Below, in pieces: positions 41,777 through 59,268 of a DNA stretch of 59,371 nucleotides. The DNA is from Chloroflexota bacterium (lineage in GTDB: Bacteria > Chloroflexota > Limnocylindria > Limnocylindrales > CSP1-4). The notes beneath the pieces were generated by a model. It was not told where the DNA came from. It made no database searches and saw only the letters and a list, made by a program, of their open reading frames with translations. The stretch covers positions 1 to 59,371 of the forward strand of contig DAOTXE010000002.1 of assembly GCA_034435355.1 (NCBI GenBank), read 5' to 3'. A program made the translations under genes and the position numbers. The stretch's first letter is position 1. Each line of letters starts with the position of its first letter.

Positions 41777-41810
41777 CGTAGCAGCCGCCCGGCGTCGGGG
41801 GGCTGCTACG
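41777..41810. terminator. Inverted repeat between convergent glyQS and nfnB (likely bidirectional terminator)
   Basis: cgtagcagcc ...14 nt... ggctgctacg, 10-bp perfect stem. Confidence 0.7.
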
Positions 41811-43347: not shown

Positions 43348-44282
43348 GCGATGCGGTTTCCAGCGGCCGCGGCCGCCTCCTGTCTCTCGGCGGCGCTCGC
43401 GATTCCCGGGATCAGGCACGGCCCGGCGGCGGCCTCCCCGGCTCCTCCTGACTCCGTGGCCGCGGCGCGGCGGTGCGCGACCTCGAGGGCACGTGCCTCG
43501 AAGTCCCGGTAGGTACCCAGCCGGTCGGCGAGCTCGCGGAAGTCGACCTGGTGGGCATCGAACTCGGGTCCGTCCACGCAGGCGTAGACGGTCTTCCCGC
43601 CGACGGCCACCCGGCAGCCGCCGCACATCCCCGTTCCGTCCAGCATGATCGCGTTGAGCGAGGCAAAGGTCGGGACACCGTACGGGCGGGTCAGCTCGGC
43701 AACCGCCCGCATCATGGGGACCGGGCCGACGGCGTACACGGCGTCCACGCCACCGGCCTCGATCACGTCGCGGAGGGCGTCCGTGACGAAGCCGTGCCTC
43801 CCGTAGCTCCCGTCGTCGGTGCAGGTGATGACGTCGCCGGCGCGCCGGAGCTCGTCCTCGAAGATGACCCACTCCCTGGAGCGGCCGCCGATCACGCTGA
43901 TCACCTCGACGCCGTTGGCAGCGAGCCCGAGCGCGATCGGGTGGACCACGGCCGTCCCGACGCCGCCGCCGACGCACACCACGCGTCCGTGCTCGAGCAG
44001 CTCCGTCGCCCTGCCGAGAGGACCGGCAACGTCGGCGATCGCCTCGCCCGGTTGGAGGGCCACGAGGTCCTCGGTGCTCTTGCCGACGGCCTGGATGACG
44101 AGCGTGATCGTGCCCCGCCCGGGGTCGGCATCGGCGATCGTGAGCGGGATCCGCTCGGCGCCGGGGGCGCGATGGACGATCACGAACTGGCCTGGCTGGC
44201 GAATCTCCGCGATGCGGGGCGCCTCGATCACGAGGCGCGTCACGTTGGGGGAGAGCTGGGTCCGCTCGATGACGGTGTGCAT
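43344..44282 (-). CDS. nfnA: NfnA/SudB-type small subunit (FAD, NAD, [2Fe-2S])
   Basis: PGQFVI, ERIPLTIAD, DVAGPLG, VGGGVG, GPVPMM, IMLDGTGMCGGCRV...ACVDGPEFD. Confidence 0.92.
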   Translation of the reverse strand: MHTVIERTQLSPNVTRLVIEAPRIAEIRQPGQFVIVHRAPGAERIPLTIADADPGRGTITLVIQAVGKSTEDLVALQPGEAIADVAGPLGRATELLEHGRVVCVGGGVGTAVVHPIALGLAANGVEVISVIGGRSREWVIFEDELRRAGDVITCTDDGSYGRHGFVTDALRDVIEAGGVDAVYAVGPVPMMRAVAELTRPYGVPTFASLNAIMLDGTGMCGGCRVAVGGKTVYACVDGPEFDAHQVDFRELADRLGTYRDFEARALEVAHRRAAATESGGAGEAAAGPCLIPGIASAAERQEAAAAAGNRIA

Positions 44283-44463
44283 GGAAACTCCGGGTCTGGT
44301 GCGATGTTGGCACCATGATGCGCGTCCTGCAGGATTCGATCCATGCGCAAGGGTGCATGGATCTCGGGCCGAATGTCACACGCCCGCCGGGCCTCGGGCC
44401 AACCCTGCGGCGGGCGCGGTTCGGCCGGCCCGGCTTCCCGGGCGTGGGTTCGCCCGCGCGACC

Positions 44464-44673
44464 TCAGGCGGAGATGGCCGCCGCGGCCGCGGCCGGGATG
44501 ATCGCCTCGGTCGGGCAGATCTCGACGCCGACGCAGCCGCCCGAGGTGACGCAATCGCCGCAGATCTCGGGATCCACGACGTACACGTCGTCCGCCTTCG
44601 AGATGGCCCCGCAGGGGCACTCGGGCTCGCAGTTCCCGCACCCGATGCAGTCGTCCGTGATCGTGCTGGCCAT
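44464..44673 (-). CDS. 2x[4Fe-4S] ferredoxin (69 aa)
   Basis: AGGAG RBS; CIGCGNCEPECP and CGDC-x5-C-x5-CP. Confidence 0.88.
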   Translation of the reverse strand: MASTITDDCIGCGNCEPECPCGAISKADDVYVVDPEICGDCVTSGGCVGVEICPTEAIIPAAAAAAISA

Positions 44674-44716
44674 GTCCTCGCTCCTGCTGACTGGCCGGGC
44701 CGGAGCCCGGAGCCGC

Positions 44717-45154
44717 CTAGACGGCCGCGGCGGCAGTGCCGCCGGTCGCGTCGCCCGGGCCGGGGGGACCGCCGGCCGTGGGCTGCTGTTGGTGCCACTC
44801 CTGGTGCCCGGGGCGCGGGTCGCCCGGGGCCCCGGAGCGGACGTGAACGTGGGGCGCATCCATCGACATCCGGAGGCTGTCCTTGTTGCAGAGGTCGACA
44901 CACACGCCGCAGGCGATGCAGCGGAGCTGCTCGATCGCGAAATACCGATCCTCGCGCGAGCAGGTGAGCGCGACCGTCGGGCAGCGACGCGCGCACAGGC
45001 CGCAGAAGACGCAGGTGTCGATATCGAATTCGAGCGTCCCCCGGGTGCCCGCAAAGTGCGGACGCGTCTCCGTCGGGTAGCGGCGGGTCACCGGGCGGGA
45101 GACCAGGTTCCGCAGCGATCGTCCGACCATCGGCAGGTTGAAGGGGTTCGCCAT
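44717..45154 (-). CDS. echF: Ech hydrogenase subunit F (NuoI-like, 2x[4Fe-4S])
   Basis: PVTRRYP, RGTLEFD, CVFCGLCARRCP, CIACGVCVDLC. Confidence 0.9.
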   Translation of the reverse strand: MANPFNLPMVGRSLRNLVSRPVTRRYPTETRPHFAGTRGTLEFDIDTCVFCGLCARRCPTVALTCSREDRYFAIEQLRCIACGVCVDLCNKDSLRMSMDAPHVHVRSGAPGDPRPGHQEWHQQQPTAGGPPGPGDATGGTAAAAV

Positions 45155-45155
45155 C

Positions 45156-46241
45156 TCAGCGCTCCGTGCAGCTGATGCAGGGGTCGATGGTCATGATGAT
45201 GTTCGGGACGTCCGCCAGGTCGCAGCCCTTCACGAGCTTGATCATCGCCGGGATGTTGGCGAAGGTCGGCGTGCGCGCACGGAAGCGCTCGAGGTACTTC
45301 GTGCCGTTCGCCCGGATGTAGTAGATGACCTCGCCGCGGGGCTGCTCGAGCCGCTCGAACGTCTCGCCGGTCGGCAGGCCACGCACCTTGACCTCGATCG
45401 GGAGGCCGTCGCCCCTCGGCATTCGGGCCACCGCCTGGCGGATGAGGTCGATCGATTGCGAGATCTCGCGGACCCGGACGACCACCCGGGCCAGGCAGTC
45501 CCCGGCCGTCTCGAGCACGGGTGAGAAGTCGAGGCGGTCGTACAGGTGCGTGCCGGACAGGCGGGTGTCCAGCGGGATGCCGGAGGCGCGGGCCATCGGG
45601 CCGACCGCGTCGACGGCATGCGCGTCCTCCCGGCTCAGGATCCCCACTCCGGACAGACGGTGGCGGATCGACGGGTCGGTCTCGAAGATCCGGGCGGTCT
45701 CGGCGAAGCCGGCCCCGAGCTCCTCCAGCCGGGTGACGATCGCCGCGAGCTCGCTGTCCGAAATGTCGCGGCGCACGCCGCCGATCCGGTTGACGGAGAA
45801 GATGATGCGGCCGCCGGTCGTCTTCTCGAAGATGTCGAGGACGGCCTCGCGCGTTCGCCAGCAGTGCATGAAGAGATTCTCGAAGCCGAAGGCATCCGCG
45901 CCGAGGCCCAGCCACAGCAGGTGGCTGTGGATCCGTGACATCTCGGCCCAGATGAGGCGCAACCAGCTCGCGCGCTCCGGGACCTCCACGGACATGATCT
46001 TCTCCATCGCGACGGCGTACCCCATGCCGTGCATGAAGCTGCAGATGCCGCAGATCCGCTCCACGACGTAGCCGAACTCGGTGAACTCGACCCGCTCGAC
46101 GAGCGCCTCCAGGCCACGGTGGATGTAGCCGATGGTGGGAATGGCGTCCACCACCTTCTCGTCCTCGAGGACGAGGTCGAGCACGATCGGCTCGGGCAGC
46201 ACCGGGTGCTGCGGGCCCATGGGCACGACGGTCCGTTTCAT
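45156..46241 (-). CDS. echE: Ech hydrogenase large catalytic [NiFe] subunit
   Basis: GPQHPVLPEP, GYIHRGLE, L1 ERICGICS, EQPRGE, RTPT, L2 DPCISCTER with no C-terminal extension. Confidence 0.93.
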   Translation of the reverse strand: MKRTVVPMGPQHPVLPEPIVLDLVLEDEKVVDAIPTIGYIHRGLEALVERVEFTEFGYVVERICGICSFMHGMGYAVAMEKIMSVEVPERASWLRLIWAEMSRIHSHLLWLGLGADAFGFENLFMHCWRTREAVLDIFEKTTGGRIIFSVNRIGGVRRDISDSELAAIVTRLEELGAGFAETARIFETDPSIRHRLSGVGILSREDAHAVDAVGPMARASGIPLDTRLSGTHLYDRLDFSPVLETAGDCLARVVVRVREISQSIDLIRQAVARMPRGDGLPIEVKVRGLPTGETFERLEQPRGEVIYYIRANGTKYLERFRARTPTFANIPAMIKLVKGCDLADVPNIIMTIDPCISCTER

Positions 46242-46651
46242 GCCTTGTTCCCCGCCCCTTCATGTTTCGGGGGTGCGTCGGTCCTTCCGAGGGCGTCCAG
46301 TCGGGCCCGGATCGCGCTGGGCGCGAAGGGCACGATGCTCGAGGTCTTGTAGAGCTGGCCCCGCAGGTCGAGCCCGATCCCCGTCACGGTCACGCCGAAG
46401 AGCTCCCGGATCTCGTTCTCGTAGAGGAACGCCGCGCCGAAGAAAGCCGAGACGCTCGGGACCTCCTCGCCGGGCAGGACCTGCACGCGCAGGTGCTCGA
46501 GGGTCCGGCCCCGCGCGAACGACCAGCTGATATCGACGGCGCCATGCTCGAGGCCCTCCGCGGGGAGAACGCTCGTGGCGTTGATGATGGCCAGCCTCCA
46601 GCCGTCGGCATGGTAGGTGCCCACCCGGGCGAGAAATGCTTCCCTGTCCAT
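46238..46651 (-). CDS. echD: Ech hydrogenase subunit D (NuoC-like)
   Basis: VPSVSAFFGAAFLYENEIRELFGV; position between echC and echE. Confidence 0.85.
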   Translation of the reverse strand: MDREAFLARVGTYHADGWRLAIINATSVLPAEGLEHGAVDISWSFARGRTLEHLRVQVLPGEEVPSVSAFFGAAFLYENEIRELFGVTVTGIGLDLRGQLYKTSSIVPFAPSAIRARLDALGRTDAPPKHEGAGNKA

Positions 46652-47085
46652 CAGGCGCTCCGCTTCCGCTTCTGCTCGAGCGCCGCGATGCCGGAGACCA
46701 CGCCGTCGATGATGCTTTCTGGCCGGGCGGCGCAGCCGGGGACGTAGACGTCCACCGGGACCACCTGGTCGATGCCGCCCTGGATGTTGTAGGCGCGGGC
46801 GAAGATGCCGCCCGAGCAGGCGCAGGCCCCGACCGCGACGACGACCTTCGGATCGGGCATCTGCCGGTAGAGGTTCTGGATGATCTCGATGTTCCGTTCG
46901 TTCACGCTGCCCGTCACGAGCAGGATGTCCGCGTGCTTCGGGTTGCCGGTGTTCACGATCCCGAAGCGCTCGACGTCGTAGAGCGGCGTCAGGCAGGCCA
47001 GGACCTCGATGTCGCAGCCGTTGCAGCTGGATCCGTCGTAGTGGAGGATCCAGGGGGAACGCTTGAAGAGGGACACCGGCTTCAC
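46651..47085 (-). CDS. echC: Ech hydrogenase small subunit C (NuoB-like)
   Basis: SPWILHYDGSSCNGCDIE, NPKHADILLVTG, VGACACSGG, YVPGCAARPE; start is GTG at 47085 or 47076. Confidence 0.92.
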   Translation of the reverse strand: MKPVSLFKRSPWILHYDGSSCNGCDIEVLACLTPLYDVERFGIVNTGNPKHADILLVTGSVNERNIEIIQNLYRQMPDPKVVVAVGACACSGGIFARAYNIQGGIDQVVPVDVYVPGCAARPESIIDGVVSGIAALEQKRKRSA

Positions 47086-47936
47086 CTGCCCAGGAGGAAG
47101 AGCGCGAGGACGTTGCCGCCCGTGAACAGCAGCGTGACTGCCCACGTGGAGCGAAGCACGAGCTGCCACTTGGCCCGCGAAGTCGAGTTGTCGACAAGGA
47201 CCTCGAGACCGTAGGCGACCACGAAGGCGAGCAGCCCGAGCGGCACGCTCCAGTTGAAGAAGAGGACGACGAACGCGCACAGGAGCGCGGACTCGTACCA
47301 GTGGGCGATCTCGACGTAGGCGAGCAGGCGCCCCGACATGTCCGACGTCAGCCCGCTGACCAGCTCCTGGTGGGGGTGGTGGGAGGTCGAGATGTCGAAC
47401 GGCGACTTGCGCAGCTTGATGGTCGCCACGAACAGGAAGGCCAGGAGCACGCCGGGAAGCTCCAGCGCGACGAGCACGGGCGAGGCGAGGACGCCCCCGA
47501 ACGTGCTCGCACCGGTCACCTTGCAGATGGCCGCCAGCATGAGGATGAAGAACGGTTCCGAGGCCAGCAGGACGACAAGCTCGCGCTCGGCGCCCGCGAA
47601 GCTGTAGGGCGAGTTGACCGAGCCGGCCGCGAGGACGAGGCAGAGGGCCGCAAGGGCGAACACGAAGGCGATGAAGATCAGGTCGGTGCCCCCCAGGGCG
47701 AGCGCGCCTGCCGCGGCCATGAACCCGACATGTCCGAGGAGGAGCGGCTCCACCACCGGGTTGATCCGCCGCGCCTGCTTCTCGAACAGCTTGCCCACGT
47801 CATAGAACGGCTGCAGCAGCGGCGGCCCGACGCGGCCCTGCATCCGGGCGCTCACGATCCGGTCGACCCCGGCGAGGAGGCCGCCGAAGAGCGGGCCGAC
47901 GACGACGAAGAGCAGGCTGTAGACGATCGGGCTCAT
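47082..47936 (-). CDS. echB: Ech hydrogenase membrane subunit B (NuoH-like)
   Basis: DRIVSARMQGRVGPPLLQPFYDV.KL, SPYS..GAERE, KLRKSPFDIS..HQELV.G. Confidence 0.92.
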   Translation of the reverse strand: MSPIVYSLLFVVVGPLFGGLLAGVDRIVSARMQGRVGPPLLQPFYDVGKLFEKQARRINPVVEPLLLGHVGFMAAAGALALGGTDLIFIAFVFALAALCLVLAAGSVNSPYSFAGAERELVVLLASEPFFILMLAAICKVTGASTFGGVLASPVLVALELPGVLLAFLFVATIKLRKSPFDISTSHHPHQELVSGLTSDMSGRLLAYVEIAHWYESALLCAFVVLFFNWSVPLGLLAFVVAYGLEVLVDNSTSRAKWQLVLRSTWAVTLLFTGGNVLALFLLGR

Positions 47937-49864
47937 GCGCGCAGCACCATGCCGACCACGACCATCGCGGTGAGGATGGCCCCGCAGAGGACGACTCCGG
48001 CGCGGAAGACCAGCGCGCCGTCGATCACGCCCTCGAGGTAGTAGTTGCGCAGGGTCACGGTCCGCGTCCCGCCCAGCGCGGCACCCATCAGGTGGCTCGC
48101 GTTCGCCGTGCGCCCGCTCGTGTAGAAGTCGGCGAGGTCGTAGTCCTCTCGTCTCGAGGCCCACAGCGCGAGCGCCGGCAGGAAGAGGACCGCGGCGAGC
48201 ATGACGACCACCATGGCCGGGCTGAGGGCGAGGAAGACCCGCGGCGTCGCGGCGAATGCCTCGAGTGCGTACGGCCCGACCACATGGTCGGAGATCCACC
48301 CGAGGCCCGCGGCCACGCCGATCACGCCGACGGCGAGGACGATCTCGGAGAACCACTCGTAGCGCGTGACGCGGTCCTCGACGGAGCGCTCGTACGGCTC
48401 GATGGCGCGCATCGAGAGGATCTTGATCAGGAGCTTGCCCCAGTAGAAGATCGTCAGCGAGCTGCCGAAGGCCATGATGATGAGGAAGGCGGCGCCCGCG
48501 AAACCGGGGACCTCGAGGAACGCGCGGATCGCGGTCCACTTCGCGACCACGATGCCGAACGGCGCGATGAACATGCCGGCGATCCCCGTCAGGGCCAGGA
48601 CGCTCGCCCGCGGCATGCGGCTGAGCAGGGTGTCGAAGTTTTCCATGTCCTTGGTGTAGAGCCGGTTCTCCAGGGTTCCCACGACGAGGAACAGGAGCGC
48701 CTTGGCCACCGCGTGGAAGATCACGATCATCACGCCCACCCAGACCAGCTCGGGTGTGCCGATCCCGGCGCACCCCACGATCAGGCCGAGGCTCCCGATC
48801 GTGGAGTAGGCGAGCACTTTCTTCGTGTTCCGCTCGGTCACCGCCACCATCGAGGCGAAGAGGAACGTGAGCAGGCCGACGAACGCGACCAGCGTGCCGA
48901 CGGCCGACCCCGCCATGGCCGGCGAGAGGCGCAGTAGCAGGAAGACGCCGGCCTTGACCATGGTGCTCGAATGGAGCAGGGCCGAGGTGGGGGAGGGTGC
49001 GTACATCGCACCGAGGAGCCACGACGAGAAGGGCATCTGGGCGCTCTTCGTGATCCCGGCCAGGGAGAGCAGCGCGATCGCCGGGAGGAGCGCCGACCCT
49101 GCCGGTCCGGCGGTCAGCCTGGCCAGGTCCATGCCGTCGGGCTGGCCGGCCAGCAGAAGCATGGCCACCGAAAAGCCCAGCCCGCCGAGCAGGTTCATGT
49201 TGAGCGCGTCGAAGGCATAGCCGATCGTCTCCTCCGTCCGCGTGTAGCCGATCAGGAGGAACGAGCAGATGGTCGTGATCTCCCAGAACACGCTCATCAT
49301 CGGGAGATCATTGGAGACGACCAGCCCGAACATTGCCCCGAGGAACAGGAACAGGAGGAAGAAGAAGGAGGTGCGCCGGCCACGGATCATCGGGTTCGCG
49401 CGCTGGTAATCGCGCATGTACCCGAGCGCATGGATGCAGATCAGCGGCCCCACGATCCCGATCACCAGGACCATCACCATGGTCAGGCGGTCGAACCAGA
49501 AAAGCCGCGCCGGGTCCGACGCCGGCAAGTGGCCGCCCAGGTCCAGGTAGAGCGCGATCCCCAGCTGGGCGAGGGCCATGATCGGTGCAACCACGCGCCC
49601 GTTCTGCAGGCTGACCACCACGACGAAGACGGCGATGGCCGCCTCCGCCACGAGCACCAGGTGACCGGGCGTGAAGCCGCCCGGCAGCCCGAAGAAGATC
49701 GCATCGCCGTTGCCGAAGGTGAAGACGGTCAGCAGCGACGCCGCAGCCACAACGACGCACGCACCGACGACGATGGCATTCCGAAGGGCGCCCTGGGTGA
49801 CGACGAGCAGCCCACCGCTGATGACGAGCGGGAAGGCGACCAGGACGACCACGAGCGCGCTCAT
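47933..49864 (-). CDS. echA: Ech hydrogenase antiporter-like membrane subunit A (NuoL/MrpA-like)
   Basis: HALGYM..Y, WEITTICSFLLIGY, KSAQMPFSSWLLGAM.APSPTSALLHSSTMVKAG, KKVLAYST, FHAVAKALLF. Confidence 0.92.
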   Translation of the reverse strand: MSALVVVLVAFPLVISGGLLVVTQGALRNAIVVGACVVVAAASLLTVFTFGNGDAIFFGLPGGFTPGHLVLVAEAAIAVFVVVVSLQNGRVVAPIMALAQLGIALYLDLGGHLPASDPARLFWFDRLTMVMVLVIGIVGPLICIHALGYMRDYQRANPMIRGRRTSFFFLLFLFLGAMFGLVVSNDLPMMSVFWEITTICSFLLIGYTRTEETIGYAFDALNMNLLGGLGFSVAMLLLAGQPDGMDLARLTAGPAGSALLPAIALLSLAGITKSAQMPFSSWLLGAMYAPSPTSALLHSSTMVKAGVFLLLRLSPAMAGSAVGTLVAFVGLLTFLFASMVAVTERNTKKVLAYSTIGSLGLIVGCAGIGTPELVWVGVMIVIFHAVAKALLFLVVGTLENRLYTKDMENFDTLLSRMPRASVLALTGIAGMFIAPFGIVVAKWTAIRAFLEVPGFAGAAFLIIMAFGSSLTIFYWGKLLIKILSMRAIEPYERSVEDRVTRYEWFSEIVLAVGVIGVAAGLGWISDHVVGPYALEAFAATPRVFLALSPAMVVVMLAAVLFLPALALWASRREDYDLADFYTSGRTANASHLMGAALGGTRTVTLRNYYLEGVIDGALVFRAGVVLCGAILTAMVVVGMVLRA

Positions 49865-49891
49865 CTCAGGCGCACCGTGTCCCGTCCGGCA

Positions 49892-50281
49892 TCAGTGCGC
49901 CGCCTCGAGGAGATGGTCCACCTCGTAGACGAGGACGTCCGGCGAGACCGGCTTCTCCATGAAGCGTGCGACGGGTATCCATCCGTCGTCCCGGTCCTGG
50001 GCGGCAAGCTCGCGGGCCGAGATGAACTCGTCCACCCGGCTGAGCATGATCAGCGACAACCCGGGGAAGTCGCGGGCGAACTTTCGGGCAAGGTCGAAGC
50101 CTGCTGTCGTCCCGTCTAGCATCGCCTCGAGGACGACGAGATCGGGCGTCTCGCGCCGCGTGGCGGCGAGCCCGTCGGCCGTCGTCCGGGCCGTGGCCAC
50201 GGCATGTCCGTCCGCCTCCAGAGCGGCCCTGTTCCGCGCGACCAGGTCCGCGTCGTCGTCCACCAGAAGGATGTGTGCCAT
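49892..50281 (-). CDS. Single-domain response regulator receiver with Glu at the phospho-acceptor position
   Basis: ILLVDDD, PDLVVLE (E52 where Asp is canonical), IMLS, MEKP. Confidence 0.85.
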   Translation of the reverse strand: MAHILLVDDDADLVARNRAALEADGHAVATARTTADGLAATRRETPDLVVLEAMLDGTTAGFDLARKFARDFPGLSLIMLSRVDEFISARELAAQDRDDGWIPVARFMEKPVSPDVLVYEVDHLLEAAH

Positions 50282-50485
50282 GTCCCGTCCAGGCCCGGGG
50301 GCCGCCCGGCGCCATCAACTCCCGCGTCCACGGCCCACTCGGCCGCTTGGACTGCCGTGCTGTGCCAATCGACAGGGTATCCACCCGGCCGCGTTTGGCC
50401 GCTTGTAGATCGGCCCCTCGACACGTGCCGGACGGCCCGACATGGACGGGCCGAGTCGTCCGGGGGCCGATCGGGCGGGGCACGC

Positions 50486-50491
50486 TACGAT
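50486..50491 (+). promoter_or_regulatory. -10 element for hypA (probably leaderless)
   Basis: TACGAT followed 7 nt later by GTG-CAC-GAG (MHE). Confidence 0.45.
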
Positions 50492-50498
50492 GCTGAGC

Positions 50499-50843
50499 GT
50501 GCACGAGTTCTCGATCGCCGAGGCGCTGGCCGCCCAGGTGCAGCGCCACGCGCCACCATCCGGGCGCGTGCGTGAGGTGGAAATCTGCGTCGGCGCGCTT
50601 CGCGGGCTGGAGCCGGACGCGCTCCGGATGTGCTGGGACGCCGTGACCCACGGCACGCCCCTCGAGGGTTCGGTCCTGCAGGTCGACCTCCGCCCGTGGT
50701 CCATCACCTGCTCGACCTGCGGTCGCACGTGGACCAGCCCGGTCCCGTTCGTCGCCTGCGCCTGCGGAGACCCGGCGCCGAAGCCGTCCGCCGGGGACGA
50801 GCTCGACCTGGTCGCGCTCACCGTCGAGGCCGAGGAGGATTGA
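50499..50843 (+). CDS. hypA: Hydrogenase nickel metallochaperone HypA
   Basis: N-terminal MHEFSIA, VGALRGLEP..L, CSTC...CAC, GDELDL. Confidence 0.9.
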   Translation: MHEFSIAEALAAQVQRHAPPSGRVREVEICVGALRGLEPDALRMCWDAVTHGTPLEGSVLQVDLRPWSITCSTCGRTWTSPVPFVACACGDPAPKPSAGDELDLVALTVEAEED

Positions 50844-50844
50844 G

Positions 50845-51534
50845 ATGCCCGAGGCCGGGAAGACCACCCGGGTCCCGCTCGTGGAGCGGGTGCTGGAGGC
50901 GAACGACGAGGTCGCCGCTGCGAACCGTGCCCAGCTGGAGCGACGGGGGATCTTCTCGGTCGACCTGATCGGGTCGCCCGGGAGCGGCAAGACGGCGCTT
51001 CTCGAGGCGACCCTCCGCGCACTGCACGGACGGCGGCGCCCGGCCGTCCTCGTCGGAGACCTCGCGACCCGCCGGGACGGAGACCGCCTCGCCCGATGGT
51101 GCGACCAGGTTGTCCAGATTTCGACCGGCCAGGGCTGTCACCTGGAGGCGAACCAGGTCCGGGACGCGCTCGCCGGGATCGACCTGGGCGCCGTTGACCT
51201 GCTCTTCATCGAGAACGTGGGGAACCTGATCTGCCCGGTCGGCTTCGACCTGGGCCAGTCCACCAAGGTCGGCCTGTTCAGTCTCACCGAGGGCGACGAC
51301 AAGGCGGCCAAGCACCCCTACCTGGTCGAGGAAGCCGACCTCATCCTGCTCAACAAGGTCGACCTCCTGCCCTACCTTTCGTTCGACCGGTCGTTCTTCG
51401 AGGGGGACGTTCGGCTGCTGAACCCCCGGGTCCCAGTCCTCGGCGTCTCCGCGACGACCGGAGAGGGGCTGGACGCGTGGCTCGCCTGGCTGGAGCGAGG
51501 CCCGCTCGCTGGTCCTGCATCGGCCGGCAGCTGA
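50845..51534 (+). CDS. hypB: Hydrogenase nickel-insertion GTPase HypB
   Basis: GSPGSGKT, GDL, CHLEA, IENVGNLICP, EGDDK..KHP, NKVD, SATTGEG. Confidence 0.97.
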   Translation: MPEAGKTTRVPLVERVLEANDEVAAANRAQLERRGIFSVDLIGSPGSGKTALLEATLRALHGRRRPAVLVGDLATRRDGDRLARWCDQVVQISTGQGCHLEANQVRDALAGIDLGAVDLLFIENVGNLICPVGFDLGQSTKVGLFSLTEGDDKAAKHPYLVEEADLILLNKVDLLPYLSFDRSFFEGDVRLLNPRVPVLGVSATTGEGLDAWLAWLERGPLAGPASAGS

Positions 51535-51972: not shown

Positions 51973-52557
51973 GTGAGCACGCAGATTCGACCCGGTGCCG
52001 TCGGTCGACTCGACCACCGCTTCCTCGCCGAGGTTTCCAGCGCGGCCGGGGGCCAGTCGCGCCTGCAGATGTGCATCCAGTGCGGCACCTGCGGTGGCTC
52101 GTGCCCCTCGGCCGCGGACATGGACCACACCCCGCGGATGCTGTTCGCGATGATCCGGGCCGGGATGCGGGACGCGGTGCTCGCCAGCAACACGCCCTGG
52201 ATGTGCGTCTCGTGCCACTTCTGCGTCGTCCGCTGTCCGCAGGACGTCCACATCACCGATGTGATGTACGCCCTCAAGGGGATCGCGGCCAGGACCGGCT
52301 CCAGTCCGGATTCCAAGGCGCCCGAGTTCTCGCGCGTCTTCGTCGAGAACATCTCGACGTACGGCCGGAGCTTCGAGGTGGGCCTCGTGGCACGGCATTA
52401 CCTGCGCCACCAGGTCCGGCGGCTCCCGAGCATGGCCCCGATGGGCATCGGGATGTTCGCACGTGGTCGCATCGGGCTGATGCCCAAGCGGATCCGCGGA
52501 GTCGACGGGCTGCGTGCGATTCTCGATCGTGCCGAGGCGCTGGAGGCCGCCCAATGA
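51973..52557 (+). CDS. hdrC: Heterodisulfide reductase subunit C
   Basis: CIQCGTCGGSCP, WMCVSCHFCVVRCP; GTG start at 51973. Confidence 0.9.
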   Translation: MSTQIRPGAVGRLDHRFLAEVSSAAGGQSRLQMCIQCGTCGGSCPSAADMDHTPRMLFAMIRAGMRDAVLASNTPWMCVSCHFCVVRCPQDVHITDVMYALKGIAARTGSSPDSKAPEFSRVFVENISTYGRSFEVGLVARHYLRHQVRRLPSMAPMGIGMFARGRIGLMPKRIRGVDGLRAILDRAEALEAAQ

Positions 52558-53642
52558 ACACGTTCCTGTACTACCCGGGATGCTCGATGGAGGGCACCGC
52601 CCGGGCCTACCAGGCGTCGCTCGACGTCGTGTGCAACGTCCTCGGCGTGCGCCTGCAGGAGATCGACGACTGGAACTGCTGCGGCGCGACGGAGTACGCG
52701 GGGATCAGCCTGTTCCGGTCTCACGCCCTCATCGGGCGCAACCTCGCCCTGGCGGAGGCGCAATCGGGCTCGATCGCCGGCTCCGAGGGGGCGGCGGCCG
52801 GCGGCGTCGAGGCCGTCAAGGCGGCCGGTGAAGTGCGTGCGCGCCGCGTGGAGACGGTCGTCGCCCCCTGTAGCGCCTGCTACCTCAACCTGGCCAAGAC
52901 CGACGCCTACCTGCGCGACAATTCCGTGCTCGCCCGAGGCGTGAACGAGGCCCTCGGCGCTGCCGGCCTCCACTACACCCCGGGGGCCGTGCGGGTACGC
53001 CACCTCCTCGACGTCCTGGTCGACGATGTCGGGCTGGACGCGATCGCCGGCCGCGTGTCGCGACCGCTCAGCGGCTTGCGGGTCGCGCCCTATCTCGGCT
53101 GCATGCTCACGCGCCCGGACCTGGACGAGCGCTGGCCGATCCGCGAGCACCCGCTGGTGTTCGACCGGCTGCTCGAAGCGCTGGGCGCCGAGGTGATCGA
53201 CTTCCCGCTCAAGACCGACTGCTGCGGCGGTCACATGACGCAGATCAGCCCCGGGACCGGGTTCGAGCTCATTCGACGTCTCGTCCACGAGGCGACTGCC
53301 CGGCACGCGGACATCATGGCCACGGTCTGCCCGATGTGCCAGATGAACGTCGACGCCTACCAGGGCGAGATGAACCGGTACTTCCGGACCCATTACTCGA
53401 TGCCGATCCTGTTCTTCACGCAGCTCATGGGCCTCAGCTTCGGCGCGACCGCGAGCGAGGTGTCGATCGGGACGGAGCTCGTCGATGCGGGGCCGGCGCT
53501 CGCCCGGATCGGGATCGAGGTTCCGCAGGCGGACGTTGATGCGGCTGCTGCCGGGGCGGCCGAGGTCGCCCGCCAGGCCCGAAGCCGACGCTCCAAGGCG
53601 TTGCCGATGCCGCGAATGCCGGGCAAGGAGAACCGACCATGA
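52554..53642 (+). CDS. hdrB: Heterodisulfide reductase subunit B (two CCG domains)
   Basis: YYPGCS, DWNCCGA, PCSAC, YLGC, DCCGG, CPMCQ.N.D, ILFFTQL.GL. Confidence 0.93.
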   Translation: MNTFLYYPGCSMEGTARAYQASLDVVCNVLGVRLQEIDDWNCCGATEYAGISLFRSHALIGRNLALAEAQSGSIAGSEGAAAGGVEAVKAAGEVRARRVETVVAPCSACYLNLAKTDAYLRDNSVLARGVNEALGAAGLHYTPGAVRVRHLLDVLVDDVGLDAIAGRVSRPLSGLRVAPYLGCMLTRPDLDERWPIREHPLVFDRLLEALGAEVIDFPLKTDCCGGHMTQISPGTGFELIRRLVHEATARHADIMATVCPMCQMNVDAYQGEMNRYFRTHYSMPILFFTQLMGLSFGATASEVSIGTELVDAGPALARIGIEVPQADVDAAAAGAAEVARQARSRRSKALPMPRMPGKENRP

Positions 53643-55663
53643 GCCAGGCGGAGCGGATCGGGGTCTACATCTGCCACTGCGGGACGAACATCGCCGGCGT
53701 CGTTGACGTCGAGGCGGTCCGCGATTTCGCGGGCGACGCGCTCGCCGGACGCGGTGTCGTCGTGGCCCGGGATTCGAAGTTCATGTGCTCGAGCCTCGGA
53801 CAGGAGCTGATCGAGAAGGACATCGCCGAGCAGGGTCTGACCGGTGTGGTGGTGGGCGCCTGCTCGCCGCACATGCACGAGGCGACGTTCCGCGGTGCGT
53901 GCGCCCGCGCCGGGCTCAACCCGTACCTGTGCGAGCTGGTCTCGCTCCGCGAGCACGTCTCGTGGGTGCACACCGACCACGCCATGGCGACGGCAAAAGC
54001 GAAGGCCATCGTCACGAGCGGCGTGGAGCGGGTGCGCCAGTCGGTGCCGCTTGAGCCGATCCGGGTTCCCATCAACGCGTCGACGCTCGTCGTGGGCGGC
54101 GGCATCACCGGCATCCAGGCCGCCCTGGAGCTGGCCGACGCCGGGCATCGCGTCTATCTCGTCGAGCGCCAGGCATCGATCGGCGGCCACATGGCCCAGT
54201 TCGACAAGACCTTCCCGACGCTCGACTGCGCCGCCTGCATCCTCACCCCGCGCATGGTCACGGCCGGCAACCACCCGAACATCACGCTCATGACCTGGAG
54301 CGAGGTCGTGAACGTGTCTGGCTACGTCGGGAGCTTCTCGGTCACCGTCCGCCAGAAGGCGCGCTACGTGGACACGAGCCTGTGCACCGGCTGCGGCATC
54401 TGCGAGGAGAAATGCCCGGCGCGGGTCATCGACGATACCTTCGAGGCCGGGATCGGCTATCGCAAGGCGGTCGCCGTGCCCTTCCCCCAGGCCGTTCCCA
54501 AGTTCCCGGTCATCGACCGTGACAACTGCACCTTCTTCGAGCGTGGGACGTGCCGCGCGTGCGAGAAGCTGTGTCCGACCAACGCGATCGACTTCAACCA
54601 GCAGGACGAGCTCGTCACGTTCGAGGTCGGCAACATCGTGGTCGCGACCGGCTACGAGCTGTTCGACCCGCGCCGTGTCGAGCAGTACGGCTACGGCCGC
54701 CTGGCGAACGTGTTCACCAGCCTCGAGTTCGAGCGCCTGAGCAATGCCTCCGGGCCCACCGAGGGCCGCGTGGTCCTGCGCGACGGGGTGACCGCGCCAA
54801 AGACGGTCGGGGTCATCCACTGCGTCGGCAGCCGCGACCGCAACTACAACTCGTACTGCTCCGCCATCTGCTGCATGCAGAGCCTGAAGTTCGCGCACCT
54901 CGTGAAGGAGCGGACCGGGGCGACGGTCTACGAGTTCTACATCGACATCCGGACGCCCGGCAAGGCGTACGACGAGTTCTACCAGCGGGTCCTGGAGGAG
55001 GGGACGATCTTCGTGCGGGGTCGCGTGGCCGAGGTGAGCGACTCGCTGCGGCCCGACGAGGCGGACCAGGCCGGCCGGCTCATCATCCAGGTCGAGGATA
55101 CGCTCGCCGGGCGCCAGCGCCGTATCCCGGTCGACATGGTGGTGCTCTCGTGCGGCCTGGAGCCCGCGCACGACGCGCGGGACGTCGCCCGACTGATGGG
55201 GATCACCTGCAGCTCCGACGGCTGGATCACCGAGCGGCACCCGAAGCTCGATCCGATCGCCACCATGACCGAGGGCGTGTTCGCGGCTGGCTGCGCCACC
55301 GGCCCCAAGGACATTCCCTCATCCGTTTCCCAGGGGGCGGCGGCAGCCGCCCGGGTGCTGACGCGCATCCAGGCGGGCGAGATGCTGCTCGAGCCGGTCC
55401 GCGCCAGCGTGGATGAGACACGATGCTCCGGCTGCCGCATCTGCAACGCGATCTGTCCGTTCAATGCCATCCGGTTCCACGAGGAGACTGCGCTGTCGGA
55501 GGTGATCACGGCGCTCTGCCAGGGGTGTGGCACCTGCGTCGCCGCCTGCCCGGCCGGGGCGATCCACGGCACGGGCTTCAGTGATGCCCAGGTGCTGGCC
55601 CAGATCCGCGGGCTGCTCGCCAGCCCAGCCGTGGCGCTGCAGCGAGAGGCGGTGCTGGCATGA
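53639..55663 (+). CDS. hdrA: Heterodisulfide reductase subunit A (flavin-based bifurcating)
   Basis: GVYICHCG, VGGGITG, IGGHMAQFDKTFPTLDCAACIL, TSLEFERL, CVGSR..YCSAICCMQSLK, four ferredoxin-type Cys motifs. Confidence 0.96.
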   Translation: MSQAERIGVYICHCGTNIAGVVDVEAVRDFAGDALAGRGVVVARDSKFMCSSLGQELIEKDIAEQGLTGVVVGACSPHMHEATFRGACARAGLNPYLCELVSLREHVSWVHTDHAMATAKAKAIVTSGVERVRQSVPLEPIRVPINASTLVVGGGITGIQAALELADAGHRVYLVERQASIGGHMAQFDKTFPTLDCAACILTPRMVTAGNHPNITLMTWSEVVNVSGYVGSFSVTVRQKARYVDTSLCTGCGICEEKCPARVIDDTFEAGIGYRKAVAVPFPQAVPKFPVIDRDNCTFFERGTCRACEKLCPTNAIDFNQQDELVTFEVGNIVVATGYELFDPRRVEQYGYGRLANVFTSLEFERLSNASGPTEGRVVLRDGVTAPKTVGVIHCVGSRDRNYNSYCSAICCMQSLKFAHLVKERTGATVYEFYIDIRTPGKAYDEFYQRVLEEGTIFVRGRVAEVSDSLRPDEADQAGRLIIQVEDTLAGRQRRIPVDMVVLSCGLEPAHDARDVARLMGITCSSDGWITERHPKLDPIATMTEGVFAAGCATGPKDIPSSVSQGAAAAARVLTRIQAGEMLLEPVRASVDETRCSGCRICNAICPFNAIRFHEETALSEVITALCQGCGTCVAACPAGAIHGTGFSDAQVLAQIRGLLASPAVALQREAVLA

Positions 55664-56211
55664 GCCACGTTGCAGGCGAGCGCCCGGACGGGGCCCCCTT
55701 CGAGCCGGTGATCATCGGCTTCACGTGCAACTGGTGCAGCTACCGTGCGGCCGACCTGGCCGGGACCGCGCGCCTGAAGTACCCGCCCAACATCAGCCTC
55801 GTCCGGCTGATGTGCTCGGGACGGCTCGATCCGGCGTTCGTGCTCGAGGCGTTCGCGCGCGGCGCGGACGGCGTGCTGGTGACCGGTTGCTGGCCGGGCG
55901 ACTGCCACTACCTTGAGCAGAACTACTACGCGCTGCGCCGTTTCCAGCTGCTGAAGCGGACCATGGCCGGGCTGGGCCTGGAGGTGCAGCGCCTCAGGCT
56001 CGTGTGGGCCAGCGCTGCGGAGGGTGCGCGGCTGGCCAGCGAATTCAGCTCCTTCGTCGAGGAGGTCCGGGAGCTCGGGCCGTTGCACTGGGGCGGTGGC
56101 CCAGCGGCAGCCGGGCCCCGCTCGACGGAGCCCGAGGAGATCGCGCAAGGGGTCACGGCGGCGATCGCCGCGACGATGCCGGCCGCGGTGGCCGACGAGG
56201 TGATGGCATGA
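55660..56211 (+). CDS. mvhD: MvhD/FlpD [2Fe-2S] subunit
   Basis: FTCNWCSYRAADLAG, RLMCSGR, ADGVLVTGC.PGDCHY, WASAAEG. Confidence 0.95.
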   Translation: MSHVAGERPDGAPFEPVIIGFTCNWCSYRAADLAGTARLKYPPNISLVRLMCSGRLDPAFVLEAFARGADGVLVTGCWPGDCHYLEQNYYALRRFQLLKRTMAGLGLEVQRLRLVWASAAEGARLASEFSSFVEEVRELGPLHWGGGPAAAGPRSTEPEEIAQGVTAAIAATMPAAVADEVMA

Positions 56212-57284
56212 CGGGCGACGCGCGGCCTCGCTTCGCGATGTACTGGGGAGCCGCCTGCGGCGGCTGCGACATCGCCGTGCTCAACCTCAACGAGAAGCTG
56301 CTGGACGTGGCGGCCCGCTTCGAGATCGCGTTCTGGCCGGCCGTCGTCGACGTGAAGTACGCCGACCTCGAGGCGATGCCGGACAAGTCGATCCTGCTCA
56401 CCCTGTTCAGCGGCGGCATTCGCAACTCCGAGAACGAGGAGATCGCCCGACTGCTGCGCCGCAAGAGCCAGCTGCTTGTTGCCTTCGGTGCCTGCGCAAC
56501 CGAGGGCGGCATCCCCGGGCTGGCCAACCTGTCCAGTCCCGCCGAGATCTACGCCGCCGTTTACGACGACGGGCTCTCCACGGTGAACCCCGACGGCGTG
56601 CGCCCGGTGACACGCATGACCGTCCAGGAAGGAAAGCTCCACCTGCCGACGTTCCAGCATCTCGTCCGGACCCTGGACCAGGTGGTCCCGGTCGACTACT
56701 ACGTGCCCGGCTGCCCTCCGGAGACCGCCCGGATCGCCGAGGTCATGGACGTCGTGATGGCGGTCCTCGACGGGAAGGCCGAGCTGCCGCCGCCGGGGTC
56801 GGTCCTCGGGGCCGGCACGTCGACGGTGTGCGACGAGTGCACCCGCGAGCGGCACGAGAAGCGGCTGCCGGCGTTCGTTCGCCTCCAGTCGTTGGCGCAC
56901 GTGGACCCGAACCTGTGCCTCCTCGAGCAGGGCATCCCCTGCAACGGTCCGGCGACGCGCTCCGGTTGTGGCGCCCTCTGCCCGGCCGCGGGGGCCCAGT
57001 GCATCGGCTGCTACGGATCGGCCGACGGCACGGGCGACCAGGGCGCCCGCCTGCTGTCCGCGTTCGCCTCGATCGTCGAAGCGCGCGATCCGTTCGACAT
57101 CGACCTGGCGCTGGCGGGCATCGCCGACCCGGTGGGCCAGTTCTATCGCTTCGGGCTCGCAGCCTCGCCGTTGCGCGGGGGGCGGCATGGCGTTGCCGCG
57201 CGCGACGACGGCCTGGGGGTCGGTCCGGTCGAGCCGGCGGAGTCGGATGCCGGGCGCGAGCTCGTCGCCGGCGCGGCGAGGTAG
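56208..57284 (+). CDS. mvhG: Group 3c [NiFe]-hydrogenase small subunit
   Basis: WGAACGGCD, AFGACA..GGIPGL, VPGCPP, VCDEC, CLLEQG.PC.GPATRSGCGALCP..CIGCYG; ATG at 56208. Confidence 0.92.
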   Translation: MTGDARPRFAMYWGAACGGCDIAVLNLNEKLLDVAARFEIAFWPAVVDVKYADLEAMPDKSILLTLFSGGIRNSENEEIARLLRRKSQLLVAFGACATEGGIPGLANLSSPAEIYAAVYDDGLSTVNPDGVRPVTRMTVQEGKLHLPTFQHLVRTLDQVVPVDYYVPGCPPETARIAEVMDVVMAVLDGKAELPPPGSVLGAGTSTVCDECTRERHEKRLPAFVRLQSLAHVDPNLCLLEQGIPCNGPATRSGCGALCPAAGAQCIGCYGSADGTGDQGARLLSAFASIVEARDPFDIDLALAGIADPVGQFYRFGLAASPLRGGRHGVAARDDGLGVGPVEPAESDAGRELVAGAAR

Positions 57285-57291
57285 GAGAGCG

Positions 57292-58779
57292 ATGATGGAG
57301 CGAGTGACGATCGACCCGATCACGCGGCTCGAAGGCCACGGCCGGATCGAGATCTTCCTCGACAGCGACGGCGAGGTCGCAAACGCCTACTTCCAGGTCC
57401 CCGAGATGCGCGGCTTCGAGCGCTTCTGCGTGGGCCGGCCGGTTGAGGAGATGCCGCTGCTCACCAGCCGGATCTGCGGTGTCTGTCCGGAGGCGCACCA
57501 CATGGCGGCCGCCAAGGCTGCCGATGCCGTCTACCACGTCGATCCGCCCCGGCCTGCCAAGCTGCTTCGCGAGCTCCTGTACAGCGCGTTCTTCGTCGCC
57601 GACCACACGACCCACTTCTACGCTCTCGGTGGGCCTGACCTCGTCGTGGGGCCCGACGCCCCGGCCTCGGAGCGCAACCTGCTCGGCGTGATCCGGACCG
57701 TCGGCCTGGAGATCGGCGGGCAGGTCATCGAGGCGCGCCGGGCGGGACACCGCGTCATCGAACTCATCGGTGGCCGCAAGGTTCACCCCTGCACCGCCGT
57801 CCCGGGTGGTCTCACCAAGGGCATCACGGAGGAGGAGCGGGTTGAGATCGAGCGACTGGGCCGGTGGGCGGTCGAGTTCGGCCAGGCGAGCCTGGCCCTG
57901 TTCGACCGGCTGGTCCTGGGCAACCCGGCCTACCTCGAGCTGATCCTGGGCAACGTCTACCGCGACGAGACCTATTACATGGGTATGGTCGACCCGGCCG
58001 GGAAGGTCAACTTCTACGACGGCCGGATCCGGGTCGTCGCCCCCGATGGCGAGCTGCACGGTGAATACGCGCCGGCCGAGTACCGGGACTGGATCGCCGA
58101 GCGTGTCGAGCCCTGGACCTACCTCAAGTTCCCGTATCTCCAGCAGGTCGGCTGGAAAGGATTCGTGGACGGCAAGGACTCGGGCATCTACTGCGCCACG
58201 CCCCTGAGCCGTCTCAACGCCGCCGACGGGATGGCCACCCCACTCGCCCAGGCCGAGTACGAGCGGTTCTACTCGACCCTGGCCCCACGCGCCGCGGACG
58301 GCCGCAAGCGACTTGTCCACCAGCGGCTCGCCACGCACTGGGCTCGCCTGATCGAGCTGCTCTATGCCGCCGAGCGCTGGGTCGAGCTGGCGACCGACCC
58401 CGAGGTGGTCTCGGACAATGTCCGAACGATCCCCACCGAGGCGCCCACGAAGGGTGTCGGGACCGTCGAGGCCCCGCGAGGGACACTCACCCACCACTAC
58501 TGGACGGATGAGCGTGGAGTTCTCACCCGCGTGAACCTGGTCGTGGGGACGACGAACAACTACGCGCCGATCAGCCTGTCGGTCGCCAAGGCAGCTCGCA
58601 ACCTGATCCACCACGGGACGGTCACGGACGGGTTGCTGAACCGGATCGAGATGGCGTTCCGGTCCTATGACCCGTGCTTTGGTTGCGCGACGCATTCCCT
58701 GCCGGGCCAGATGCCGCTTGAGGTCGCGATCCGCGACGCTGACGGTCGCGTGCTCGACGTCCGTCGCCAGTTCTGCTGA
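57292..58779 (+). CDS. mvhA: Group 3c [NiFe]-hydrogenase large subunit
   Basis: IDPITRLEGHG, RGFERF, L1 SRICGVCP..H, EAPRGTL.HHY, L2 RSYDPCFGCATH plus cleavable C-terminal tail. Confidence 0.94.
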   Translation: MMERVTIDPITRLEGHGRIEIFLDSDGEVANAYFQVPEMRGFERFCVGRPVEEMPLLTSRICGVCPEAHHMAAAKAADAVYHVDPPRPAKLLRELLYSAFFVADHTTHFYALGGPDLVVGPDAPASERNLLGVIRTVGLEIGGQVIEARRAGHRVIELIGGRKVHPCTAVPGGLTKGITEEERVEIERLGRWAVEFGQASLALFDRLVLGNPAYLELILGNVYRDETYYMGMVDPAGKVNFYDGRIRVVAPDGELHGEYAPAEYRDWIAERVEPWTYLKFPYLQQVGWKGFVDGKDSGIYCATPLSRLNAADGMATPLAQAEYERFYSTLAPRAADGRKRLVHQRLATHWARLIELLYAAERWVELATDPEVVSDNVRTIPTEAPTKGVGTVEAPRGTLTHHYWTDERGVLTRVNLVVGTTNNYAPISLSVAKAARNLIHHGTVTDGLLNRIEMAFRSYDPCFGCATHSLPGQMPLEVAIRDADGRVLDVRRQFC

Positions 58780-58785
58780 TCGCCG

Positions 58786-59268
58786 ATGGCCGGGCCCACC
58801 CTGGTCATCGGCCTGGGCAACCCGATCCTGGGGGACGACGGGGTCGGCTGGCGCGTGGCCGACGAGGTCGAGCGCCGCCTGAGCGCGTACCCGTCACCGG
58901 CGCCTGCGACCGTCGAACGCCTGGCGGTGGGCGGGCTCGCCCTCATGGAACGGCTCGTCGGGTGCGATCGCGCCATCATCATCGACTCGTACCTGAGCGA
59001 CGGCGAGCCAGGAACGGTCAGGTCGTTCTCGCTCGCGGAGCTTGCGGGCCGCCCGCTCGGGTACCTCGATTCCGCCCACGACGCATCACTTGCGTCTGCC
59101 CTGGCCGCCGGCCGAGCCGTCGGCGCGCGCCTGCCGGACGACGTGGTCGTGGTCACCGTCGACACGGTGCCGCAGGACGTCTTTGACGACACGCTCACGG
59201 CGCCCGTCCAGTCGGCGGTCGACGCGGCCGCGAATGAGGTCATGGCGTTCATCGCCCGCGCGCCGTGA
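58786..59268 (+). CDS. Hydrogenase maturation endopeptidase (HybD/HycI family)
   Basis: VIGLGNPILGDDGVG, IIIDS, SAHD. Confidence 0.92.
   Translation: MAGPTLVIGLGNPILGDDGVGWRVADEVERRLSAYPSPAPATVERLAVGGLALMERLVGCDRAIIIDSYLSDGEPGTVRSFSLAELAGRPLGYLDSAHDASLASALAAGRAVGARLPDDVVVVTVDTVPQDVFDDTLTAPVQSAVDAAANEVMAFIARAP

Follow-up and report, generated by a model that had tools for sequence, protein, structure and literature searches.

An MvhADG–HdrABC operon of a Chloroflexota bacterium whose HdrB appears to keep its metal sites and to have lost the determinants of CoM-S-S-CoB binding

The stretch of DNA considered here (the window: 59,371 nucleotides, G+C content ~70%) comes from a Chloroflexota bacterium and carries, at 51973-58779 of the (+) strand, the genes hdrC-hdrB-hdrA-mvhD-mvhG-mvhA, which encode a heterodisulfide reductase (Hdr) module and a [NiFe] hydrogenase (Table 1). 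Because four consecutive junctions (hdrC/B, hdrB/A, hdrA/mvhD and mvhD/mvhG) are ATGA start/stop overlaps, the six structural genes constitute one translationally coupled operon. On the same strand, hypAB lies upstream of the operon and a maturation protease gene downstream. The initial annotation of the locus had placed HdrABC at 52554-55663; that range holds hdrB and hdrA, but hdrC lies upstream of it. The host is a high-GC, Limnocylindria-type member of the phylum, a soil or freshwater bacterium, and its genome (2.43 Mb in 96 contigs, of which the window is contig C2) is 94% complete. The operon is real, intact and well conserved, and it is of an already known type.

The contiguous genes encode the six subunits of an MvhADG–HdrABC complex. 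HdrA aligns end to end with chain A of the methanogen structure 5ODC (expectation value, E, 3e-201). Two of its residues to which the initial annotation had drawn attention are in place: E365, the second Glu of SLEFERL (54731-54733), aligns with E356 of 5ODC_A, and K417, the Lys of QSLKF (54887-54889), aligns with K409. The glutamate reportedly has a functional role in methanogen HdrA. K409 is the partner of N5 of the flavin adenine dinucleotide (FAD) in the methanogen protein (PMC6405883). MvhA has both Ni-Fe motifs, RICGVC (residue 62) and DPCFGCATH (residue 462), and the combination of this large subunit with MvhD, which matches FlpD at E 1e-48, is that of a group 3c complex. With the Fe-S domains of HdrA and the ten-cysteine HdrB described below, the cofactor ligands and subunits needed for the complex are all encoded. 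HdrA and MvhD (53639-56211) match the NCBIfam model of the fused Methanosarcina HdrA2 (positions 1-643 and 647-773) better than the class I methanogen HdrA models; in the window they are two genes with an ATGA overlap, in contrast to the fused HdrA2 of Methanosarcina.

HdrB has eleven cysteines in total, ten of which lie in two CCG motifs, C10-x31-C42C43-x62-C106xxC109 and C183-x39-C223C224-x34-C259xxC262. Both motifs and their flanking cysteines, which the initial annotation had read from the sequence, are thus confirmed, and Pfam recognizes the CCG domain twice. The AlphaFold (AF2) model of the protein (mean predicted local distance difference test score, pLDDT, 84) superposes on 5odc_B and 7bkb_B with template modeling (TM) scores of 0.92-0.93 and root mean square deviations of 1.8-2.0 Å. 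The spacer of 62 residues in motif 1 is long because of an Ala/Gly-rich insertion of ~26 residues, the family norm being CC-x37-CxxC. We rejected this insertion as a functional element: it is confined to the closest relatives, its sequence varies, and its model confidence is low (pLDDT 54-68). The C-terminal extension, likewise modeled with low confidence, comprises a variable acidic/Ala-rich stretch, a basic stretch and the sequence LPMP (53601-53612), which is invariant in 69 of 69 aligned relatives; the tail looks like a short docking motif.

The substrate cleft is another matter. In the product-bound methanogen structure 5ODR, the sulfonate of coenzyme M (CoM) contacts the backbone NH groups of Gly46 and Gly198, the carboxylate of coenzyme B (CoB) contacts Arg201, and the CoB phosphate contacts Arg14 and Arg240 (PMC13261682). 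We mapped these positions by HMMER alignment to the PDB sequences; the N-terminal HdrB alignment has a weak overall score, yet it is anchored by the cysteines with high posterior values. R14, R201 and R240 are all present in three methanogen HdrB alignments. In the window protein, they correspond to Thr15, Thr229 and Ala268, respectively. At the CoM site, G46 is replaced by Glu47, and G198 is kept as Gly226. Thr229 lies within the sequence CCGGHMTQ, two residues shorter here than the methanogen CCGAGGGVR. The replacements extend to the relatives: among 69 aligned sequences, the column of R14 holds Ser or Thr in 64, that of R201 Thr or Ser in 68, that of R240 Ala or Leu in 66, and that of G46 Glu in all 69. 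Position 17, which is basic (Arg or Lys) in 60 of the 69, provides the sole positive charge nearby.

This comparison with the Methanothermococcus structure, which the initial annotation had proposed, suggests that the metal sites have been kept but that the determinants of CoM-S-S-CoB binding have been lost throughout the clade, which would then be unable to bind coenzyme B in the known way. Because the CoB-binding arginines are replaced, a substrate other than CoM-S-S-CoB is to be expected. The loss of three arginines together with the gain of an invariant glutamate may also speak against a strongly anionic substrate. As a strict CoB–CoM heterodisulfide reductase, the protein does not qualify: all of the binding residues except G226 are replaced, and mcrA and comA were not found in the 94% complete genome, in agreement with the earlier description of the host as a non-methanogen.

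Homology with the solved methanogen enzyme suggests how the complex would work. H2 would be split at MvhA, and MvhG and MvhD would relay the electrons to the HdrA flavin, FAD. Bifurcation there would supply ferredoxin on one side and, on the other, by way of HdrC, the pair of noncubane clusters in HdrB, where an acceptor of higher potential would be reduced. The complex may also run in reverse, disposing of electrons as H2. With the neighboring Ech and Nfn genes, it could allow electrons to move between H2, ferredoxin and NAD(P)H, and an adjacent Ech would in principle permit an energy-conserving redox loop from H2 to the acceptor through ferredoxin. Ech adjacency is not a feature of the family, because it is seen in only 3 of 81 related loci.

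The distribution of the operon was examined at several levels, in which relatives are not independent samples. A protein search returned more than 7,500 HdrB relatives at E<=1e-10 among the matches listed, and a scan for the CCGGHMTQ motif found it in at least 600 species-representative genomes. Among the matches listed, the nearest proteins and loci belong to Candidatus Limnocylindria, Chloroflexi/Chloroflexota, Anaerolineae and Candidatus Dormibacterota. An HdrB homologue occurs in 13 of 121 genomes sampled from the class; 11 of these, including the source genome, are of the close type, and they are spread over 7 of 34 genera. Six unpublished genomes (G067, G106, G091, G112, G096 and G087) enter the class tallies through the denominators only; none is HdrB-positive, and each has one GcvH match. 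In a sample of 301 genomes of the phylum, some HdrB homologue occurs in 75 and the orthologous type (E<=1e-90, 55-66% identity) in 21. The operon is a patchy accessory trait, yet a very widespread one. The two remaining HdrB-positive class genomes, G038 and G062, have another HdrB type, only ~40% identical; in G038, which also encodes a second GcvH-like protein, it lies inside an open frame of 1018 codons that contains one TAG. This type may represent a distinct Hdr system, possibly lipoyl-linked.

Neighborhoods were compared in the best 80 related loci, all from metagenome-assembled genomes, with up to 10 kb per side. The operon order is kept across them, and the genes of the operon itself are the only ones widely conserved; there is no carrier gene, lipoate ligase, or membrane or quinone-binding subunit among the conserved neighbors of these 80 loci. 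A 155-residue cNMP (cyclic nucleotide)-binding protein follows the maturation protease in 27 of the 80, mainly in Anaerolineae (e.g. L021:16585-17052), and is not in the window. The other recurrent neighbors are housekeeping genes of one Anaerolineae subgroup, namely those for transketolase, glucose-6-phosphate dehydrogenase and an IscA-type protein.

In the window, a divergent arm of redox genes lies on the minus strand. The 857-codon open reading frame annotated there (41806-44379) is partly spurious: NfnB/GltD-like domains occupy its C-terminal half, and the NfnA-like protein, which has a FAD_binding_6 and a DHODB Fe-S domain, is encoded in a different frame. Elsewhere the genome has three more group-3-like [NiFe] small/large subunit pairs, with 29-40% identity to MvhA (C8:10098-12045, C8:20212-22343 and C7:3650-5688). 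A hydrogenase set of Ech, Mvh and these three pairs is unusually rich for a 2.4-Mb genome.

Table 1. Genes and protein features at the hdr-mvh locus, in window coordinates
Feature	Position	Strand	Basis
hypA, nickel insertion protein for hydrogenase	50442-50843	+	Pfam HypA E 2e-21
hypB, nickel insertion protein for hydrogenase	50845-51534	+	TIGR00073 E 9e-71, above cut-off
hdrC, 194 aa, two CxxCxxCxxxC ferredoxin motifs (C34-C44, C78-C88)	51973-52557	+	Fer4 dicluster families; best PDB matches are HdrC chains 8rvv_C and 5odc_C
hdrB, 362 aa, two CCG domains, predicted ligands of two noncubane [4Fe-4S] clusters	52554-53642	+	Pfam CCG x2; 5odc_B E 1e-32
Ala/Gly-rich HdrB insertion, ~26 residues (about residues 71-98), between CC and CxxC of motif 1	52764-52847	+	alignments
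CCGGHMTQ signature of the bacterial HdrB clade	53220-53243	+	alignment to 5odc_B; column counts over 69 relatives; motif scan
C-terminal HdrB extension, ~44 residues, past the end of methanogen HdrB	53508-53639	+	alignments; methanogen chains stop at about query residue 318
hdrA, 674 aa, FAD and Fe-S subunit	53639-55663	+	5ODC_A E 3e-201 over residues 5-661
mvhD, [2Fe-2S] linker subunit	55660-56211	+	Pfam FlpD E 1e-48, full length
mvhG, hydrogenase small subunit	56208-57284	+	Oxidored_q6; VhuG model E 1e-56
mvhA, [NiFe] large subunit, cleavable tail	57292-58779	+	RICGVC, DPCFGCATH; best PDB match 5odc_F MvhA E 3e-111
hydrogenase maturation endopeptidase	58786-59268	+	TIGR00072 E 1e-26, above cut-off
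divergent arm: receiver protein, Ech-type membrane hydrogenase subunits, small ferredoxin, NfnA-like and NfnB-like genes	41806-50281	-	context only
small ferredoxin of the divergent arm	44464-44673	-	
NfnA-like gene of the divergent arm	43344-44282	-	

What, then, does HdrB reduce? We consider it fairly probable that the MvhADG–HdrABC complex couples a group 3c [NiFe] hydrogenase and a heterodisulfide reductase module to a thiol/disulfide or sulfane-sulfur compound that has no dedicated carrier gene. The acceptor is almost certainly not CoM-S-S-CoB, and it is probably neither DsrC nor a dedicated lipoyl protein. An acceptor without a dedicated carrier is favored because no partner gene tracks or flanks the operon in the best 80 related loci and no tested carrier co-occurs with it. 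We therefore favor an acceptor already present in any of these bacteria, which could be either a small disulfide or persulfide of general occurrence or a thiol protein with a housekeeping role.

Several considerations weigh against this proposal. First, the known pathways for low-molecular-weight thiols offer no candidate, and we rejected them: BshC (bacillithiol), EgtB (ergothioneine), and GCS2 and GshA (glutathione) were not found in the 94% complete genome, and the only match to MshC (mycothiol) is below the cut-off, at a level reached by every control genome. The genome, in 96 contigs, is itself incomplete. Second, a ubiquitous thiol as acceptor would be an argument from a missing partner gene. 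Third, intact CCG motifs do not prove disulfide chemistry, because the Moorella-type MetFV-HdrABC-MvhD complex is one for which no disulfide acceptor has been established (Table 1 of PMC5861303).

The alternatives differ in the acceptor they propose. The first is that the high-potential electrons leave HdrBC for an acceptor that is not a thiol, as is the case for other proteins with CCG domains: a quinone, as in proteins of the SdhE or methylmenaquinol:fumarate reductase (MFR) anchor type, or an organic acid. The best NCBIfam match of HdrB is indeed to SdhE, the anchor of methylmenaquinol:fumarate reductase (153.5 bits versus 149.3 for the HdrB model, both below the cut-off). The loss of anion-binding arginines from the cleft would also fit, as would the basic, clade-specific C-terminal tail with its invariant LPMP, a possible docking element for a partner or for the membrane. 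Moreover, the only CCG domains in the genome besides those of HdrB are in GlpC; we had considered this second CCG protein as a thiol oxidase and rejected it, as it is encoded in a glpK-glpABC cluster. Nevertheless, the protein has the overall fold and the cluster ligands of HdrB, the operon encodes no membrane or quinone-binding subunit and has none conserved nearby in the best 80 related loci, and the tail is of low confidence in the model. This alternative seems unlikely.

The second alternative is that the acceptor is protein-bound sulfur, a carrier persulfide or mixed disulfide, on the TusE-like DsrC homologue, TusA or DsrE. The initial annotation had noted that the window has no CoM/CoB, DsrC, TusA or GcvH-like gene. 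For the window this is correct, but it says little, because genome-wide searches located every gene of the DsrC, TusA and GcvH families outside the window, on contigs C52, C67, C69 and C5, and found DsrE elsewhere too. The wider search for DsrC and thiol biosynthesis that it had proposed thus returned a DsrC-family gene and none of the thiol markers. The DsrC homologue (113 aa; C52:18600-21600, locus L001) is encoded directly upstream of a class-V aminotransferase of the cysteine desulfurase type and downstream of a molybdoprotein of the xanthine dehydrogenase family. DsrC proper is defined by a second cysteine ten residues upstream of its C-terminal one. The C52 protein has one cysteine in total, near the C terminus (...PNPKTCLD), as in TusE; lacking CysB, it cannot form a DsrC-type intramolecular (tri)sulfide, and it may relay sulfur for the thiolation of cofactors or tRNA instead of serving energy metabolism. 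The DsrC family occurs in 3 of the 121 class genomes, and its overlap with the 13 HdrB-positive ones is the source genome alone. We therefore rejected DsrC as the substrate: the homologue has a single cysteine, the search for DsrA gave no match, and none of the other 12 HdrB-positive class genomes yielded a member of the family.

TusA is encoded three times in the genome, on C67 and C69, and DsrE once, on C69. The C69 cluster (C69:405-7440, locus L002) encodes an ArsR-type regulator, DsrE and TusA, together with an MvhD-like domain joined by an HdrA-like protein of 586 aa, another HdrA-like protein of 687 aa, and an HdrC/HdrE fusion of 539 aa that is similar to QmoC. The cluster resembles a Qmo-like complex with sulfur carriers and without HdrB; AprA was not found in the genome search, which gave a weak match far under the cut-off. 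In relatives, the QmoC-like match reads through 1-5 TGA codons in its N-terminal part and so probably represents two genes there. Within the class, the QmoC-like gene is present in 9 of 13 HdrB-positive genomes versus 17 of 121 overall, which would favor a link with sulfur relay. But this overlap overstates the link, since related genomes are not independent, and common descent or a similar way of life may account for it; of the 21 phylum-sample genomes with the orthologous HdrB, only 8 carry the gene. For this reason we rejected the C69 cluster as an obligate partner. The C67 cluster (C67:25100-28400, locus L087:3117-6407) consists of an ArsR-family regulator, a TusA of 90 aa, a protein of 373 aa that ends in a TusA domain and has an unassigned N-terminal part, and a flavoprotein resembling sulfide:quinone reductase (SQR) or FCSD, and looks like a system for handling sulfide or persulfide. 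With no carrier gene conserved beside the best 80 related operons, sulfur bound to any of these carriers is, in our judgment, quite improbable as the acceptor, despite the cysteine desulfurase beside the DsrC-family gene.

The third alternative, protein-bound lipoate on GcvH or another lipoyl protein, follows the proposal made for sHdr-LbpA systems. A GcvH gene does exist, but it is the only one of the genome and lies inside a gcvT-gcvH-gcvPA-gcvPB operon, that is, with the genes of glycine cleavage. GcvH is, moreover, single-copy in the source genome and in all ten further class genomes that have HdrB of the close type, and the same holds for HdrB-negative genomes; no lipoate ligase or carrier is found among the conserved neighbors. 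On these grounds we rejected a dedicated lipoyl carrier, and lipoate in any protein-bound form is very unlikely. Finally, a true CoM-S-S-CoB reductase, as is suggested by database names such as 'CoB--CoM heterodisulfide reductase subunit B family protein' and by matches to the HdrA, HdrB and HdrC models, can be set aside with near certainty, given NCBIfam Hdr equivalog scores that are all under the curated cut-offs, the absence of the three CoB-binding arginines, a Chloroflexota host, and no match to McrA or ComA in the 94% complete genome.

The initial annotation had allowed that DsrC/DsrAB or CoM/CoB pathways encoded in the genome might account for the substrate. They do not appear to: the single-cysteine DsrC homologue does not track HdrB, and DsrA, like McrA and ComA, has no match in the 94% complete genome. 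Beyond the acceptor without a dedicated carrier that we favor, a more tentative possibility is that the HdrB clade marked by CCGGHMTQ, E47 and LPMP reduces a kind of acceptor not yet linked to any Hdr, such as a still undescribed low-molecular-weight thiol of these bacteria or free sulfane sulfur.

The complex can be placed among several known systems. It has the same six subunit types as MvhAGD–HdrABC of hydrogenotrophic methanogens (Methanothermococcus thermolithotrophicus 5ODC/5ODR; also 8RVU, 7BKB and 9SFI), and it shares with them the end-to-end HdrA match, the HdrB fold (TM 0.93), the ten cluster cysteines, the lysine facing FAD N5 and the Ni-Fe motifs. Unlike methanogen HdrB, the window protein has Thr/Thr/Ala for R14/R201/R240, an invariant Glu for G46, a two-residue deletion after the second CC, and a ~44-residue C-terminal extension with LPMP; unlike in methanogens, mcrA and comA were not found in the host genome. 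Group 3c [NiFe] hydrogenases preceded by HdrABC have been described for the Chloroflexi supergroup (bioRxiv 10.1101/2021.08.23.457424), and Mvh and Hdr appear in a 2013 model of the Anaerolineae genome RBG-2 (PMC3971608). The window operon shows the same gene association in the same phylum-level group; in their passages on these genes, the two reports deal with gene presence only, without HdrB cleft residues or tests of candidate substrates.

Other bacterial Hdr systems are more distant. The window complex differs from the Moorella-type complex in its neighbors, which are mvhG, mvhA and hypAB; the genes annotated between 35.3 and 59.3 kb include neither MetF nor MetV. FlxABCD-HdrABC and DsrMK are the DsrC-linked Hdr systems of sulfate reducers. 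Like them, the window operon encodes a bacterial HdrABC-type module with, in all likelihood, a non-CoM/CoB acceptor; unlike them, it comes from a genome that gave no match to DsrA and whose DsrC homologue carries a single cysteine, and the DsrC family, at 3 of 121 class genomes, does not track HdrB. With the sHdr-LbpA sulfur-oxidizing system (bioRxiv 10.1101/2023.12.18.572138), the source genome shares DsrE, TusA and HdrA-like genes. It differs in having one HdrB only, a hydrogenase attached to it, no hdrC1B1A-hyp-hdrC2B2 layout and no dedicated lipoate-binding protein.

The identity of the Hdr substrate in organisms other than methanogens is a standing and recognized question of anaerobic bioenergetics, raised in the literature and not peculiar to this locus. 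For one very large bacterial clade, the locus narrows the question and does not answer it: the CoB-binding arginines appear to be lost clade-wide, neither DsrC nor dedicated lipoyl carriers follow the operon from genome to genome, and no partner gene is conserved beside it. What is new here is the residue-level case against CoB binding in the known mode and the negative co-occurrence of the usual candidate carriers. These results imply that the answer must come from work on the enzyme and not from further reading of gene neighborhoods. For the CCGGHMTQ clade of HdrB, they also make the database name 'CoB--CoM heterodisulfide reductase' a misleading one. If the acceptor is indeed new to Hdr, widespread soil and freshwater bacteria, represented by at least 600 species-representative genomes from Chloroflexota, Dormibacterota and their neighbors, would run an uncharacterized H2-driven redox cycle.

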